Below, in pieces: positions 1-6,366 of a DNA stretch of 64,000 bases. The notes below the pieces were generated by a model, which ran no database searches, was not told the origin of the DNA, and worked only from the letters and a program-made list of their open reading frames with translations. A program made the position numbers and the translations under genes. Numbering within the stretch: the stretch's first letter is position 1; every line of letters starts with the position of its first letter. Origin of the DNA: Enterobacteria phage vB_EcoM_IME540; the sequence record MT150133.1; one strand, written 5' to 3'.

Positions 1-877
1 AGATTTTGATGTTATTTCTGAAGCTTTTATAACGTATATAAATTCTATACCGGCCAATAGAATAGTTTGTTTAGTATCTTCTGGTAGATTAAATGCTTCA
101 CAAAAACTTATCGATTGGTTCCGTGCAGCAGGAAGTACCGCATTCCCGACTAAATGGTTAATAGACCGGTTTGAGCCATCTTATTCTGCATTTTATGTTT
201 CAGGAAGGAATGCTATAGTAATGGAACATGTGCTTTATAATGATGGGGTGCTTGTCGAAGATGTTTCTACTCCATTAGAAGTGGTATTTGATGATATCAG
301 CGACGTCGGTGGTACAGGATATCCTGTCAGAATTGTTGAAGACGAAAGCACTTATCTAAGCAATGAGGGAGATGAAATTAAGCGATTTCCTACCGAATCT
401 CCTACCACCCCATTAACAGATTATAACATGAAGCCAGGTGAATTCTTTTACCTTAAGTTTCAATTAATGTGTGACCAAGCTTTAAAAGACGTCGGGACCT
501 CTCAGATGTCTGTTAGATTTTTTAATGCCTCAGGTGCTTTAACCGGGACAGTTAATATGGACGTTCCTTCCAACGTTCCTGCTGGTGCATGGATGACATT
601 TGAACGGGTAGTAATGGTTCCTGAAGGTACTACAGACTTTACCCTTTATGCCAGAAAAACAGCTTCGGCCGGACAAGGTGGAGTTCGAAATGTTATGTTC
701 GGTGAGATATCTGAATCAGAACCTCAGCCAAAACCCGCTGAATTTGGTGTTAACGGTATTCGTATGAACTTTGGTACGGAAACTAAAAATATGGGTACTA
801 CCATAGCCCAGCTATATGATAAAACAGGCACTAAACCCGGTCAGGTTTGGGTCGCTGAATTTAGAGAAAAATATTAA
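1..877 (+). CDS. 35: long tail fiber hinge protein gp35, C-terminal part (5' end lies outside window)
   Basis: Frame of track ORF 221..877 stays open back to position 2 with no stop; sits directly upstream of gp36-gp37-gp38 as in T4-like tail fiber operons; identity is by position only. Confidence 0.5.
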   Translation, partial: DFDVISEAFITYINSIPANRIVCLVSSGRLNASQKLIDWFRAAGSTAFPTKWLIDRFEPSYSAFYVSGRNAIVMEHVLYNDGVLVEDVSTPLEVVFDDISDVGGTGYPVRIVEDESTYLSNEGDEIKRFPTESPTTPLTDYNMKPGEFFYLKFQLMCDQALKDVGTSQMSVRFFNASGALTGTVNMDVPSNVPAGAWMTFERVVMVPEGTTDFTLYARKTASAGQGGVRNVMFGEISESEPQPKPAEFGVNGIRMNFGTETKNMGTTIAQLYDKTGTKPGQVWVAEFREKY

Positions 878-951: not shown

Positions 952-1599
952 ATGGCAGATTTAAAATTAGGTTCTACAGCAGGAGGTTCGGTATTATGGC
1001 ACCAAGGTAATTTTCCCTTAACGCCTGTATCAAACGACCTTCTTTACAAAACATATAAAGTTTACACTGAATATAATAAACCACAAGCCGCTGATAACGA
1101 CTTTGTTTCAAAAGCAAACGGCGGCAATTATAAGAATAACGTGTATTTTGAAAAAGGTTTGACCTTTAATGATACCAATGGATATGGTATTAAATTAGGA
1201 GCAAGAACTGGCGGAGCCCCGTTCACAGCTTCTTTCCGTATTAAAGGTGCTTTTGGATATGAAACGGAAGATGGTACACCGTTCGTTATATTTGACCCAA
1301 GTACAGTAGTGGGTGCTAAACGCCTCACAGTAATGGGTGATTCATTATTCCGCCAAGTATATGACGAATCAGGTCGTGTATTCAGCCCAGGCAACACCCC
1401 TACTAAAGCCCAAGTAGGATTATCGTTAGTAGATAACGCAAAACAGGTCCAAATAAATAATACTAACATGCAAACAATGACCGGAGTACTTGCTGCTCCT
1501 AACTTTATTTCGCTGAATCCGGCCTCTGACGCAGGACACGTTCCTCGTTTTGACCAGATTGTTATTAAAGATTCTATTCAAGATTTTGGTTATTATTAA
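952..1599 (+). CDS. 36: long tail fiber distal subunit gp36
   Basis: N-terminus MADLK.GST.GGSV.WHQGNFPL and C-terminus HVPRFDQIVIKDS.QDFGYY match recalled T4 gp36; 215 aa; gene order 36-37. Confidence 0.9.
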   Translation: MADLKLGSTAGGSVLWHQGNFPLTPVSNDLLYKTYKVYTEYNKPQAADNDFVSKANGGNYKNNVYFEKGLTFNDTNGYGIKLGARTGGAPFTASFRIKGAFGYETEDGTPFVIFDPSTVVGAKRLTVMGDSLFRQVYDESGRVFSPGNTPTKAQVGLSLVDNAKQVQINNTNMQTMTGVLAAPNFISLNPASDAGHVPRFDQIVIKDSIQDFGYY

Positions 1600-1607
1600 G
1601 AGGCATT

Positions 1608-4600
1608 ATGGCTACTTTAAAGCAAATCCAATTTAAAAGAAGTAAAGTAGCCGGTGTACGTCCGACACCGGCCCAGTTGGCTGAAGGCGAACTGGCTATT
1701 AACTTAAAGGACCGATTACTTTTTACTAAAGACGATACCGGAGCGATTATCGACCTTGGCTTTGCTAAAGGTGGTAATATTGACGGCAATGTTATTCATA
1801 CCGGTAACTACAATCAAACCGGTGATTATACCCTAAATGGTACCTTTACCCAAACAGGTGATTTTAATTTAACCGGTATTGCTCGCGTAACTCGTGATAT
1901 TATTGCTGCAGGTCAGATAATGACTGAAGGCGGAGAACTTATTTCTAAGAGTGCTTCAACTTCTCATTTGAGATTCTTTGACGGTGCATCACGTGAACGT
2001 GGTATTATCTTTTCTCCTAATAATGCAGGGTTGACAACTCAGGTAGTTAATATCCGTGTTCAAGATTATGCCGCTGGTAGCGAAAGCACTTATGCATTTT
2101 CAGGCAATGGTCAATTTACTTCACCTGAAGTATCGGCATGGAAATCTATTTCATCCCCACAAATTCTGACCGATAAAGTTATTACAAATGGTAAGAAAGC
2201 TGGCGATTATGATATATCTTCATTAGCAAATAATAATTCTGCCACGGATAAAAACTATTTGCGCGTTGTACGTACCGACCCGGCGTCTGCAATGCTCCAT
2301 GAAATTTGTGAAAATAACGGTATCAGTTGGTATTCTGGTTCAACCCCTACTGATTATATGTTGTCTTTTGCTTATTCTGGCGGTTTTCAAGCTGGACATT
2401 CGATTGCAGTAGGTATGGAATCAGGGCCTATGACATATTCAGCCTTAGGTAAAGGTTCTATTGCTTTGGGTGATAATGATACCGGATTAAAATGGCATCA
2501 AGATGGATATTATTTCAGCGTTAATAACGGCACAAGAACTTTACTGTACGGCCCTGCAGAAACAACTAGCCTAAGAAAATTTGTGGCCGGTTATTCTGTA
2601 AACGGTACCGATTTAACCACTCCTCCGTCGGAAAACTATGCATTAGCCACTGTTGTTACTTACCATGATAATAACGCGTATGGTGATGGCCAAACTCTTT
2701 TAGGTTATTATCAAGGTGGTAATTATCACCACTATTTCCGTGGTAAGGGTACTACAAACGTTAACACTGCAGGTGGTCTGTTAGTTACTCCTGGTAATAT
2801 TGATGTTGTTGGTGGTTCGGTTAATATTGACGGCCGCAACAATGCTTCTACTCTGTTTTTCAGAGGAAATACTACAGGAAATAGTTCAGTTGATAACATG
2901 TCTATCAACGTTTGGGGTAACACCTTTAGTACAGTAGATGGCTTTCGTAAAAACGTGATGGAAATATCTGATGATATTAGTTGGATGCATTATATCCAGC
3001 GCAATAAAGATAATACCATTGAGGCTGTATTAAATGGGCAACAAACTATTAACGAAAATCTTGTTGTTAAAAAAGATATTTTGGTTGATAGAGCGGTCCA
3101 CACCGCTGGTGAAATTACTACAAATGCTGTTAACGGGCTCCGCATCTGGAACAACGATTACGGGGTCATTTTTAGACGTTCAGAAGGAAGTCTTCACATT
3201 ATTCCTACTGCATTTGGTGAAGGTAAAAATGGTGATATCGGACCACTTCGTCCATTTAGTTTGGCTTTAGATACCGGTAAGGTTGTTATTCCTGACTTGG
3301 ATTTGAGTTATGCTTCTTTTGCAGCAAACGGCTATATTAAATTCGGTGGACATGGTGCAGGTGCAGGCGGTTACGATATTCAATATGCACAAGCAGCTCC
3401 TGTTTTCCAAGAAATTGATGATGATGCTATAAACAAATATTATCCTATTGTTAAACAGAAGTTTTTAAACAGCAAAGCTGTTTGGTCTTTAGGTACTGAA
3501 ATTAATTCAGGTACATTTGTTTTACACCATATCAAAGAAGATGGTTCACAAGGCCATACATCAAGATTTAACGCTGATGGTACAGTTAACTTTCCGGATA
3601 ACGTTCTGGTCGATGGTGGTATTAACATGAAAGGCGTGATGACTTTTGACGCCGGACATTTAGGATCACAAGATTATTTTAAATTTAACCATTTGGGTGA
3701 TAGTAATAATGCTCGTGATAACATCATCCAGTTAGAAGATAGTCAAGGCGCTCATTTTTCCACTGAACGTACTTTAGCGACAGGTGCAATTAAAACTCGT
3801 TTCTTTGGCGAAACATCCACTGATGGTACATTATACCTAAATCAGATGAATAATAGCTCTGAACGATTCTCTATTAATAATTGGGGAAATTCAGAAGTTG
3901 GTCGCGCGGCAGTGATGGAAGTCAAAGATTCCAAAGGTTATCACTTCTATACTGAACGCAGGACAGATAACAGTTTGAATTTTGATGTTGGTGGCAATTT
4001 TACTGCGCATGGACCTTCCGGAATAACCATCAAAAACTCTGCTGGCGCTCGCCACATCTGGTTTAAAGATGATAGCGAATCGGAAAAGGCTGTTATCTGG
4101 GCTACAGATGAGGGTATTTTACATATACGAAATAATTATGGGGGTTCATTTAGTCATCACTTCCGGGGTGCAATGATTCTAGCGGAAGAGCGTGTTCCAT
4201 ATAATAGTGAATACGCTCTTATCCGTGGTAATATTTCCGGTGGTGCATGGGTAGACTGGCGAGATCGTCCGGCTGGATTGTTGGTAGACTGTCAGGACTC
4301 ACGAAATCAAGCATATAACATTTGGAAAGCTACTCATTGGGGCGAACAGCACATTGCGGCGATGGGTGTTCATGCCGGCGGTGGTAATCCTCATGTTGTA
4401 TTGCATGTGGGTGGGAGTGATTACGCATTTGGATTTAACGGTGATTTTACTGCTGGTGCTGCTGTATATTGTAACGACGTTTATATTCGTTCTGACCGTC
4501 GTCTGAAAATTAATGTTGAAGACTACGAAGAGAATGCGGTGGATAAGGTAAATAAACTCAAAGTTAAAACCTATGATAAAGTTAAATCTCTTTCTGACCG

Positions 4601-4844
4601 CGAAGTTATCGGCCATGAGATTGGTATTATCGCACAGGATTTGCAAGAAGTATTACCGGAAGCTGTTAGCACTTCTAGTGTCGGATCTCAGGATAACCCA
4701 GAAGAAATTTTAACAATTTCTAACTCCGCTGTGAATGCTCTTTTAATTAGGGCCATTCAGGAAATGAGTGAAGAAATTAAAGAATTGAAAACGCCTTTCT
4801 TCACTAAAATTGCTCGCAAAATTGGTAAATACTTTAAATTCTAA
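1608..4844 (+). CDS. 37: long tail fiber distal subunit gp37 with C-terminal intramolecular chaperone-like domain
   Basis: N-terminus MATLKQIQFKRSK.AG.RP...AEGELAINLKDR matches T4 gp37; 1078 aa; C-terminal ~120 aa (DRRLKINVEDY...IGHEIGIIAQDLQEVLPEAV) resembles the self-cleaving chaperone domain of fibers and endosialidases; SD AAGAGG. Confidence 0.93.
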   Translation: MATLKQIQFKRSKVAGVRPTPAQLAEGELAINLKDRLLFTKDDTGAIIDLGFAKGGNIDGNVIHTGNYNQTGDYTLNGTFTQTGDFNLTGIARVTRDIIAAGQIMTEGGELISKSASTSHLRFFDGASRERGIIFSPNNAGLTTQVVNIRVQDYAAGSESTYAFSGNGQFTSPEVSAWKSISSPQILTDKVITNGKKAGDYDISSLANNNSATDKNYLRVVRTDPASAMLHEICENNGISWYSGSTPTDYMLSFAYSGGFQAGHSIAVGMESGPMTYSALGKGSIALGDNDTGLKWHQDGYYFSVNNGTRTLLYGPAETTSLRKFVAGYSVNGTDLTTPPSENYALATVVTYHDNNAYGDGQTLLGYYQGGNYHHYFRGKGTTNVNTAGGLLVTPGNIDVVGGSVNIDGRNNASTLFFRGNTTGNSSVDNMSINVWGNTFSTVDGFRKNVMEISDDISWMHYIQRNKDNTIEAVLNGQQTINENLVVKKDILVDRAVHTAGEITTNAVNGLRIWNNDYGVIFRRSEGSLHIIPTAFGEGKNGDIGPLRPFSLALDTGKVVIPDLDLSYASFAANGYIKFGGHGAGAGGYDIQYAQAAPVFQEIDDDAINKYYPIVKQKFLNSKAVWSLGTEINSGTFVLHHIKEDGSQGHTSRFNADGTVNFPDNVLVDGGINMKGVMTFDAGHLGSQDYFKFNHLGDSNNARDNIIQLEDSQGAHFSTERTLATGAIKTRFFGETSTDGTLYLNQMNNSSERFSINNWGNSEVGRAAVMEVKDSKGYHFYTERRTDNSLNFDVGGNFTAHGPSGITIKNSAGARHIWFKDDSESEKAVIWATDEGILHIRNNYGGSFSHHFRGAMILAEERVPYNSEYALIRGNISGGAWVDWRDRPAGLLVDCQDSRNQAYNIWKATHWGEQHIAAMGVHAGGGNPHVVLHVGGSDYAFGFNGDFTAGAAVYCNDVYIRSDRRLKINVEDYEENAVDKVNKLKVKTYDKVKSLSDREVIGHEIGIIAQDLQEVLPEAVSTSSVGSQDNPEEILTISNSAVNALLIRAIQEMSEEIKELKTPFFTKIARKIGKYFKF

Positions 4845-4877
4845 TAACAAGGGGCAATGCCCCTTTGGAGATAAATT

Positions 4878-5681
4878 ATGGCAGTAGTTGGTGTTCCTGG
4901 TTGGATTGGAAGTTCAGCCGTAAATGAAACGGGCCAGCGCTGGATGAGTCAAGCGGCTGGTCAATTAAGATTAGGTGTTCCTTGCTGGATGAGTCAATTT
5001 GCAGGTCGCTCAAGAGAAATTATTCATACACTTGGAGCGGACCACAACTTTAACGGACAATGGTTTAGAGACCGTTGTTTTGAAGCCGGTGCTGCACCTA
5101 TTGTGTTTAATATTGTAGGCGATATAGTATCTTACGACCGTAACGTTCCGCTGTTCTTTATGAATGGTGATACTCCTAATGAATATGTTACTTTGAATAT
5201 TCATGGTGGGGTTCATATGTGGGGACGTGGTGGTCATGGCGGTTGGACCCACTCAGGTGGAGACGGTAACGGTCAATGGGGTGGCGATTGTATAGTCAAC
5301 CATATAGGTCATAGACTACGTATTTGGAACTATGGGGTTATCTGTGGCGGTGGCGGTGGTGGTGGTGGCATTGCGTATCGTCCTCACTCAGGTGCTAACT
5401 GGCAAGATATCGGTGGTGGTGGTGGACGTCCATTTGGTCCTGGTGGCGGTGGTGGATACTCCGGTGGTGGTGCTTCTTATGAAAGCCCTGGTGGTGGATA
5501 CGATTATGGTAATGCCCACTCAGGTCGTGGCGGTGATGCTGGCGGCGCTGGCGGCAACGCATGGAATGATGGTGGTAAAGTTCTTAAAGTTGGGGCTGGG
5601 GGCGGTTCTGGAGCTGCTGTTGCCATTTCTGCTCCTGCATGGGGCGCGACAGGTACGATTTACGGTCCTTGGCTTAGTTAA
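4878..5681 (+). CDS. 38: tail fiber tip adhesin gp38 (T2/T6-type, glycine-rich motifs)
   Basis: 267 aa directly after gp37; several poly-Gly stretches (GGGGGGGG, GGGGG) separated by short variable segments, as in T2-type receptor-binding gp38; SD GGAG. Confidence 0.8.
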
Positions 5682-5686
5682 GAAAT

Positions 5687-5694
5687 TATAAATA
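5687..5694 (+). promoter_or_regulatory. T4-type late promoter core TATAAATA
   Basis: Exact TATAAATA about 19 nt upstream of holin start, followed by SD AAGGAG. Confidence 0.55.
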
Positions 5695-5712
5695 TCTTTA
5701 AAGGAGAAAAGT

Positions 5713-6366
5713 ATGGAACCAAAAGTAGGAATATCATTATCAGACCTACTTTTTGGACTTCTTGATAGAATTTTTAAAGATACTTCTTCCGGGAAAGTAG
5801 TTTTTTCCCGGGTCCTAGTCGTGATATTATTGTTCTTTATGGCATTGGTTTGGTATAAAGGCGAGTATATTCTAAACTTTTATAAAGAGACAACTTATGC
5901 CTCTTATACTGAAATGATTAGACAAGACCAGGACAATAGATTTAAAATTGCGGCTATCGAGCAGCTCCGAATAGTGCATTCTTCTTCAGGCGCAGACTTC
6001 ACAGCAATATATTCTTTTAGACCAACCAACATGAATTATTTTGTGGATATGGTGGCTTACGAGGGTAAATTACCGGAAACGGTAGACGCAAAAAATACGG
6101 GAGGGTTTCCAATTGACAAAACGTCAGTAGAATATATGGTGGGAGTTAACGGGAACTATTTTGAATCAAGTACCGAAACTGTATTCCTTCCTACAAAGAA
6201 GAAAACACAATTCACGTATATGTTTTCGTGCCCGTTTTTTAATTTGGATAACGTCTACGCCGGCTCGATATCGTTGTACTGGTATGATATCAAACCGGAT
6301 TTAGGATTTCCTAGACTTTCGTCTATGTGCGGTCAGGCTGGGAGGACATTAGGTCGAACACGTTAG
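5713..6366 (+). CDS. t: holin T
   Basis: 217 aa; strong match to recalled T4 holin (LFG.LDR.FKD...GKV..SRV.VVILLF.MA.VWY, YSFRP.N.NYFVD..AYEGKLP, FLPTKK, YMFSCPFFNLDN.YAG). Confidence 0.95.
   Translation: MEPKVGISLSDLLFGLLDRIFKDTSSGKVVFSRVLVVILLFFMALVWYKGEYILNFYKETTYASYTEMIRQDQDNRFKIAAIEQLRIVHSSSGADFTAIYSFRPTNMNYFVDMVAYEGKLPETVDAKNTGGFPIDKTSVEYMVGVNGNYFESSTETVFLPTKKKTQFTYMFSCPFFNLDNVYAGSISLYWYDIKPDLGFPRLSSMCGQAGRTLGRTR

Follow-up and report, generated by a model that had tools for sequence, protein, structure and literature searches.

A likely T2/S16-type receptor-binding module at the distal long tail fiber locus of Enterobacteria phage vB_EcoM_IME540

In phages T2 and T6, the long tail fiber protein gp37 is cleaved and subsequently capped by gp38, which serves as the adhesin (PMC3157838 and literature from the 1980s cited therein). 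The structure of such a fiber end was described in 2018 for phage S16, where a single gp38 caps the gp37 trimer, three conserved Trp residues of its N-terminal helical domain enter pockets of gp37, and ten glycine-rich motifs make up a polyglycine-II sandwich that shows its hypervariable loops distally (PMC6851490). The structure of PP01 gp38 followed in 2026 (PMC12892980), as did a large-scale receptor mapping combined with gp38 swaps (bioRxiv 10.64898/2026.04.02.716166). That gp38 sits at the fiber tip or is needed for adsorption in these relatives follows from antibody blocking of GP213 in LHE83 (PMC10987938) and from g38 amber mutants of T6 (PMC3157838). Here, we focus on the corresponding genes 37 and 38 of Enterobacteria phage vB_EcoM_IME540, located in a 64,000-nucleotide (nt) stretch of sequence record MT150133.1. 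This whole stretch is referred to as the window, and all coordinates are positions within it.

We consider, with high confidence, that this locus encodes a T2/S16-type distal receptor-binding module, belonging to the long tail fiber of a Dhakavirus (T-even-like), in which a gp37 precursor with a C-terminal intramolecular chaperone is followed by a glycine-rich gp38 adhesin. Such a module had been proposed earlier by a model that was given the DNA letters only (hereafter the sequence-only reading), and both open reading frames (ORFs) lie exactly where it had placed them (gp37 at 1608-4844 and gp38 at 4878-5681). The replication module in the window shares 95-97% DNA identity with the Dhakaviruses QL01, vB_EcoM_FB, and WG01, and MX01 is classified as a Dhakavirus as well; therefore, the source phage is assigned to this genus (Straboviridae, Tevenvirinae).

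Two Pfam profiles cover gp38, both scoring above threshold, namely PF21721 over amino acids (aa) 1-42 (72.4 bits, E 2.9e-20) and PF05268 over aa 47-266 (211.9 bits, E 1.4e-62), and the protein also matches PHROG 2056 ('tail fiber protein; host specificity') with E 3.7e-106. Because of the two Pfam matches, a chance origin of its alternating glycine-rich and variable segments can be dismissed. Sequence matches in the PDB are found with the adhesins of PP01 (9v85_A, E 8.7e-60) and S16 (6f45_D, E 1.7e-47). An AlphaFold2 model built from 20 homologues (predicted local distance difference test, pLDDT, of 84.9) was compared with the whole PDB and recovered the same two proteins, i.e., 9v85_C (E 2.9e-24; template modeling score, TM, of 0.84, target-normalised) and 6f45_D (E 2.1e-20), with the next match at E 1.7. 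Among PDB entries, the gp38 model thus fits the crystal structures of PP01 and S16 gp38 alone, in agreement with the adhesin role given to the protein in the sequence-only reading.

With S16, the locus shares the two-gene (gp37)3-gp38 architecture (PDB 6F45; Dunne et al. 2018), including the docking Trp residues and the G8 motif. The S16 and vB_EcoM_IME540 adhesins align from end to end, yet they are only 44% identical and differ in their variable loops. PP01 gp38 (PDB 9V85; PMC12892980) is the best structural match, with 57% identity and the same combination of a beta-helix and a polyglycine-II sandwich; the segment aa 47-115 corresponds to the beta-helix domain of both proteins (PMC6851490, PMC12892980). 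In the N-terminal domain, which is 100% identical to that of MX01 and 98% identical to that of T6, Trp9, Trp22, and Trp37 are invariant or at least 90% conserved among 20 and 111 homologues. By analogy with S16, these three residues would dock gp38 onto gp37.

Glycine makes up 26.6% of gp38 overall and 37.6% of aa 110-267, where it is found in runs of eight (G8, aa 157-164), five (G5, aa 179-183 and 189-193), and three residues (three G3 runs). A weighted entropy profile over 111 gp38 proteins separates this part into conserved glycine blocks (aa 116-121, 135-136, 157-164, 179-187, 204-207, 216-225, and 241-245) and the segments in between, which hold the most variable columns. The description of gp38 as a series of poly-glycine motifs set apart by short variable segments is thus borne out across the homologues. 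These segments had also been put forward as candidate specificity determinants, a role that is already established experimentally in relatives (PMC3157838, PMC12032242, bioRxiv 10.64898/2026.04.02.716166).

The second component is the C-terminal domain of gp37. PF13884 (Peptidase_S74, 'chaperone of endosialidase') matches aa 962-1020 over profile positions 1-57 of 58 with 54.7 bits (E 1.2e-14), where the curated cut-off is 22 bits. The domain runs from aa 962 to aa 1078, the last residue, and is thus found at the extreme C-terminus of a gp37 homologue. Counted from Ser962, it measures 117 aa, close to the ~120 aa that the sequence-only reading had compared with the chaperones of endosialidases and other fibers, and the motif quoted there, IGIIAQDLQEVLPEAV, falls inside the Peptidase_S74 match. 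In an alignment of 29 diverse gp37 homologues, some of which are metagenomic and only about 30% identical, Ser962, Asp963, Lys967, Gly1006, and Ala1009 are invariant; the last two belong to IGIIAQDLQEVLPEAV, in which Gln1010 and L-P-E-A-V (1016-1020) are nearly invariant too. In T5 pb1, cleavage takes place between Thr1263 and Ser1264, driven by Ser1264 and Lys1269, so the Ser leaves with the chaperone (PMC4690869). Ser962 and Lys967 have the same spacing as this pair (PMC4690869). We thus predict a self-cleavage between Arg961 and Ser962, which would release a fragment of 117 aa and leave a mature gp37 of 961 aa.

The predicted fold points in the same direction. In an AlphaFold2 model of gp37 aa 860-1078, most of the chaperone part reaches a pLDDT of 80-95 and shows an alpha/beta body with a long C-terminal coiled-coil helix. 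A Foldseek search of the PDB retrieves the intramolecular chaperones of MyRF (MyRF ICA, 7dc3, E 2.8e-5), the GA-1 neck appendage (3gud), and endosialidase (3gw6), and the fold matches T5 pb1 (4uw8) as well. Hence, the resemblance to endosialidase and other fiber chaperones is also seen at the level of predicted structure, although the sequence identity to K1F endosialidase (3GW6), GA-1 (3GUD), T5 pb1 (4UW8), and MyRF ICA (7DC3) is only 9-22%. Unlike in these four proteins, the chaperone is here attached to a fiber whose tip is capped by a separate adhesin and is not itself the binding site. The closest solved chain by sequence is S16 gp37 (6f45_A), aligned with gp37 aa 916-1062; in the two fold searches with the model, in which the tip upstream of the chaperone has low confidence, 6f45_A was not listed.

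The last 18 residues of the chaperone (aa 1061-1078, positions 4788-4841), KTPFFTKIARKIGKYFKF, are strongly basic (net charge +6) and amphipathic. This terminus is common to MX01, Bas46, and Shigella phage CT01, whereas in most of the remaining close homologues the chain ends with an acidic coiled-coil sequence such as LRERLAAIEAKLG.

As to the receptor, the receptor-binding region of gp38 (aa 116-267) is 99% identical to that of WG01 and QL01, 97% to that of MX01 (96% over the whole protein), 85% to that of LHE83, 80% to those of AV119 and FL08, and 48% to that of T6. Receptors are described for several of these phages: the Dhakavirus LHE83 uses OmpA, with GP213 confirmed as its receptor-binding protein (PMC10987938), and AV119 and FL08 count among the 'type 1' phages that depend on OmpA (PMC12032242). 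In the five variable segments V1-V5, LHE83, AV119, and FL08 share 81-100% identity with this gp38 (81-93% for the latter two), versus 12-38% for T6; in V1, for example, the identity is 100% for LHE83, 92% for both AV119 and FL08, and 15% for T6. Two predicted OmpA contacts of AV119, the key residue Arg165 and Asp217 (PMC12032242), are conserved as Arg168 and Asp220. Furthermore, similar adhesins share their receptor in the tested collections (PMC12032242), and a swap of gp38 turns a phage from Tsx to OmpA (bioRxiv 10.64898/2026.04.02.716166).

Since the loops are nearly identical to those of OmpA-dependent phages, E. coli OmpA is probably the receptor. The T2/T6-style recognition suggested by the sequence-only reading consequently stands for the architecture, while the receptor part does not, as the receptor-binding domain groups with the OmpA type and not with the T2 or T6 type. 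S16, a member of the genus Gelderlandvirus, binds Salmonella OmpC, unlike the OmpA proposed here. PP01 binds OmpC of E. coli O157, and its loop sequences are unlike those of vB_EcoM_IME540.

By sequence or predicted fold, the domain identities, the Ser/Lys pair, the conserved Trp residues, the alternation of glycine and variable segments, and the mosaic structure (discussed below) are established. The working of the module may then be pictured as follows, largely in analogy with its homologues. gp37 would be made as a 1078-aa precursor, of which the C-terminal chaperone would aid three chains in folding into the distal beta-helical tip. The Ser962/Lys967 pair would next cut the chain just before Ser962, whereupon the chaperone would depart and one gp38 would cap the exposed trimeric tip, docking with its N-terminal helical domain through the three Trp residues as in S16. 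The C-terminal region, presumably folded as a polyglycine-II sandwich, would carry the five variable loops on the outermost part of the fiber, where they would bind an outer-membrane protein, most likely E. coli OmpA. From its relatives, the gp38 of this phage is likewise predicted to be located at the virion tip and to be required for adsorption.

A number of points weigh against this picture, or at least against parts of it. In the monomer model, the gp37 tip (aa 860-950) has a low pLDDT of 36-64, which is expected because an interdigitated trimer was modelled as a monomer. Cleavage, gp38 stoichiometry, and receptor use are all carried over to this phage by homology. Over its last 22 residues, gp38 shares only 50-64% identity with the OmpA-tested adhesins (50% for AV119 and FL08), and AV119 Arg262, a reported OmpA contact, corresponds to Trp265. 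A single exchange in a variable loop, Q206L, switches the receptor from OmpF to OmpW (bioRxiv 10.64898/2026.04.02.716166); given such switching, the 80-85% identity to tested adhesins gives no guarantee of the same receptor. In the literature, no receptor data were found for the 99%-identical adhesins of WG01 and QL01. Lastly, exchanges in the receptor-binding-protein region of the tail fiber changed the host range in WG01/QL01, where WG01 recombinants with QL01 segments acquired wider host ranges (PMC13517834). From these exchanges, gp38 is probably not the sole determinant of host range, and other parts of the fiber probably contribute.

How the module was put together can be read from a sliding DNA identity profile against the compared phages. 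At 952-1700, the identity to other Dhakaviruses is 92-99% (for gp36, this holds for MX01, WG01, LHE83, and QL01). Thereafter, 1850-3650 is a patchwork, in which LHE83 is matched at 100% over 3052-3201, for instance, and QL01 at 96% over 2302-2451. In the stretch 3652-5000, which encodes gp37 from aa ~680 to aa 1078 together with gp38 aa 1-40, the DNA identity is 93-100% to Bas46 ChristianSchoenbein, which belongs to another genus (Mosigvirus), versus 74-97% to MX01; at the protein level, gp37 and its Bas46 counterpart agree at 98.6% over the C-terminal 219 aa. The flanks of this stretch share only 44-89% (upstream) and 47-76% (downstream) with Bas46, and in the gp38 receptor-binding domain, from nt 5150 onward, the two phages have no more than 52-68% of their DNA in common. 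To us, 3652-5000 looks like a recent inter-genus cassette exchange with Mosigvirus. After a transition zone at gp38 aa ~42-141, in which no compared phage exceeds 87%, the remaining stretch 5302-6366 (gp38 receptor-binding domain and t) matches WG01 and QL01 with 98-100% identity. The locus is a recombinant of two cassettes, one with the gp37 distal half, the chaperone, and the gp38 attachment domain, held in common with a Mosigvirus, and one with the gp38 receptor-binding domain, held in common with other Dhakaviruses. Over its full length, the 4074-nt region does not exceed 90.2% identity to any record of the phage collection, this value being reached by LQ5 over 95% of the query.

WG01, QL01, MX01, and LHE83 have the same genus backbone as this phage. 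MX01 shares the gp38 N-terminal domain, with a gp37 that is only 77% identical, and the N-terminal domains of WG01, QL01, and LHE83 are 57-80% identical to this one, their gp37 distal half and chaperone being unrelated (10-36% identity per 50-aa bin). AV119, FL08, and RB32, on the other hand, have Tequatrovirus backbones and a different gp38 N-terminal domain. As essentially the same receptor-binding domain is thus found with a different N-terminal domain and a different distal half of gp37, the attachment domain of gp38 co-segregates with the gp37 tip and chaperone. From these sequence comparisons, the receptor-binding domain is exchanged independently of this attachment-domain cassette, in line with the modularity proposed by Trojet et al. 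(PMC3157838).

This mosaicism bears on one alternative, namely that gp38 makes the terminal contact while the host range is mainly set by the mosaic gp37 shaft, through secondary contacts or its reach through surface glycans. It would account for WG01, QL01, and vB_EcoM_IME540 having receptor-binding domains that are 99% identical next to gp37 proteins that are 45-59% identical overall and 10-30% in the distal half. The segments exchanged in the WG01/QL01 recombinants, moreover, reportedly lie in gp37. Against this, the gp37 shaft domains of gp38-bearing fibers are not known to have any binding function, and much of the distal divergence co-varies with the attachment domain of gp38, so it may only reflect compatibility at the interface. 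We regard a dominant shaft as unlikely though worth keeping in mind; it is compatible with gp38 as the OmpA-type adhesin at the tip. Only tentatively, the two ideas can be joined: in this inter-genus recombinant, the gp37 distal part, chaperone, and gp38 attachment domain would have moved as a co-adapted cassette, shared with Bas46, while the OmpA-type domain was kept by the Dhakavirus lineage, and gp37 shaft or tip domains, not gp38, would set the host-range differences within the group through secondary contacts of a kind so far undescribed in gp38-capped fibers.

Alternatively, the architecture may be as proposed while the receptor is another one (e.g., Tsx, OmpC, OmpF, FadL, or lipopolysaccharide (LPS)) or OmpA together with LPS. 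The near identity of the gp38 N-terminal domain to that of the Tsx-binding phage T6 speaks for this, as do the deviating C-terminal 22 aa with Trp265 in place of Arg262, the receptor switches by single substitutions mentioned above, and the precedent of RB32, whose adhesin uses both OmpA and LPS (PMC3157838). However, the N-terminal domain attaches to gp37 and does not decide the choice of receptor (PMC3157838), all five variable segments side with the three OmpA-dependent adhesins and not with T6, and, as noted above, similar adhesins have their receptor in common. A receptor other than OmpA alone is thus rather improbable, and we retain OmpA as the probable one.

In T4, the receptor-binding needle tip of gp37 (PDB 2XGF type) spans aa ~785-1026 and is characterized by HxH metal-binding repeats. 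By BLASTP, gp37 aa 1-641 of vB_EcoM_IME540 are 33% identical to T4 gp37, and the alignment stops at residue 641 here and 743 in T4; the T4 needle tip has no BLASTP alignment to the C-terminal region of this gp37. A PDB sequence search (E <= 0.01) found S16 gp37 (6f45_A) and no T4 gp37 tip chain, and the eight HxH motifs of T4 gp37 compare with none here. T4 gp38 is unrelated to this gp38, the best BLASTP match extending over 7 residues with E 7.5. Neither does the C-terminus of gp37 align with the T4 tip nor gp38 with the T4 assembly-chaperone type, and recognition by a T4-style gp37 tip, against which the sequence-only reading had argued, is excluded by the alignment end, the missing HxH motifs, and the presence of Peptidase_S74. 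Even though the genes take the positions of T4 genes 37 and 38, the N-terminal 641 aa are homologous, and several database records of homologues bear the (inherited) label 'distal long tail fiber assembly catalyst', a T4-style arrangement with the gp37 C-terminus as the needle and gp38 as an assembly chaperone outside the virion is hardly credible and is rejected by this direct comparison, since gp38 matches adhesin families and solved adhesin structures, and T4 gp37 lacks the putative self-cleaving chaperone domain found here.

For annotation, host recognition should thus be attributed to gp38 and not to the gp37 tip, and gp37 should be described as a precursor with a removable chaperone and a predicted cleavage site before Ser962. 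OmpA as a likely receptor is useful for the design of phage cocktails and for anticipating resistance by loss of ompA. The mosaic map, in turn, indicates natural breakpoints for engineering, with the gp38 attachment domain staying with its matching gp37 tip and the receptor-binding domain being exchangeable. Earlier publications already cover the architecture and the role of the variable loops, as well as, in relatives, swap experiments of the kind proposed in the sequence-only reading, and only the combination of cassettes is particular to this phage; the module leaves the current understanding unchanged.

The gene order on the + strand is gp35-gp36-gp37-gp38-t, as derived from the ORF list, Pfam, and PHROGs, and the features discussed are collected in Table 1. 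With 33 nt separating it from gp37 and 31 nt from t, gp38 takes the position of gene 38.

Table 1. Position of the genes, domains, and motifs of the module and its surroundings (window coordinates)
Feature	Position	Strand	Basis or remark
gp35, C-terminal part	221-877	+	Upstream context
gp36, long tail fiber distal hinge connector	952..1599	+	PHROG 1425, E 8.2e-58
gp37, long tail fiber distal subunit precursor, 1078 aa + stop	1608..4844	+	PHROG 1699, E 0, aa 1-1072
Predicted mature gp37, aa 1-961	1608..4490	+	Analogy with T5 pb1
Gp34_trimer-like shaft domain, gp37 aa 446-550	2943..3257	+	Pfam PF21446, E 1.7e-07
C-terminal intramolecular chaperone / putative self-cleaving domain, gp37 aa 962-1078, 117 aa	4491..4841	+	PF13884
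SDRRLK motif, putative catalytic Ser962 + Lys967 (Ser-x4-Lys)	4491..4508	+	Conservation, T5 pb1 spacing
IGIIAQDLQEVLPEAV, gp37 aa 1005-1020	4620..4667	+	Motif quoted in the sequence-only reading
G+C-rich hairpin AAGGGGC-AAT-GCCCCTT in gp37-gp38 spacer	4849..4865	+	Fold -11.9 kcal/mol
gp38 adhesin, 267 aa + stop	4878..5681	+	PF05268, PF21721, PHROG 2056
N-terminal attachment domain, gp38 aa 1-46, Trp9/Trp22/Trp37	4878..5015	+	PF21721 aa 1-42
Central beta-helix region, gp38 aa 47-115	5016..5222	+	Beta strands of the model, pLDDT 86-95
Receptor-binding region, gp38 aa 116-267, glycine-rich motifs (polyglycine-II sandwich) + variable loops	5223..5678	+	Model matches
Variable segment V1, aa 122-134	5241..5279	+	Entropy profile
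G8 run, aa 157-164	5346..5369	+	Equals S16 GRM3 151-GGGGGGGG-158 by alignment; PMC6851490
Variable segment V2, aa 165-178, contains Arg168	5370..5411	+	Most variable, mean entropy 2.73 bits
Variable segment V3, aa 188-203	5439..5486	+	Entropy profile, segment identities
Variable segment V4, aa 208-215	5499..5522	+	Entropy profile, segment identities
Variable segment V5, aa 226-240	5553..5597	+	Entropy profile, segment identities
TATAAATA, T4-type late-promoter consensus	5687..5694	+	19 nt upstream of t start codon
Holin t, 217 aa	5713..6366	+	PF11031, E 2.4e-66

Within the gp37 shaft, the Gp34_trimer-like domain also matches the C-terminal structures of T4 gp34 (4uxe, 5nxf, and 5nxh, E ~1e-13 in the PDB sequence search). 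A homologue of the trimerization domain of the proximal fiber subunit gp34 is thus embedded in the distal subunit gp37. Further upstream, gp37 aa 278-307 (2439-2528), SALGKGSIALGDNDTGLKWHQDGYYFSVNN, is similar to part of the S16 gp37 tip construct (6f45_A), namely its residues 21-50. Its position in the middle of the shaft, about 650 aa away from the tip, suggests shuffling of shaft modules.

Some smaller features are found at the nucleotide level. The hairpin in the gp37-gp38 spacer lies directly 3' of the double stop TAATAA of gp37 and is followed by a putative gp38 ribosome-binding site, GGAG (4867-4870), 7 nt before the ATG. Its folding energy does not differ significantly from that of shuffled sequences (z-score -1.13), and we claim no function for it. 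The octamer TATAAATA upstream of t, which from established T4 knowledge we take to be a late promoter, occurs in three copies in the window versus a shuffled expectation of 6.9 and is thus not enriched. Between gp35 and gp36 (876-895), the sequence AAGGAACC-TTCG-GGTTCCTT makes a hairpin with a perfectly paired 8-bp stem, after which comes a T-rich tract. On the + strand this hairpin resembles a terminator, and it is flagged on the - strand as well.

In the region 5001-5500, which coincides with the glycine-rich part of gp38, the GC content rises to 0.488 (versus about 0.39), and the GC skew is raised as well (0.295). Foreign DNA was rejected as the cause, since the GGN codons for glycine explain the rise. 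Alternative-frame and antisense ORFs inside the region, such as those at 5332-5691 (+, 119 aa) and 4299-4646 (-, 115 aa), are without support; the Val/Ala-rich product of the former is a +1 frame reading of the GGT/GGC glycine codons. A scan of the window for tRNA genes gave none, and an Rfam scan gave no family match at the gathering threshold. In the repeat scan, no long slippage-prone array was found. Only three tandem repeats came up, one made of GGT/GGC (5344-5368), one duplicating 9 nt (5538-5555), and one with an 18-nt unit towards the N-terminus of gp37. The last is an imperfect repeat of 2.9 copies at 1815-1866 (aa ~70-87) with a unit of 6 aa, encoding repeats of the QTGDYT/NGTFTQTGDFNLTG type.

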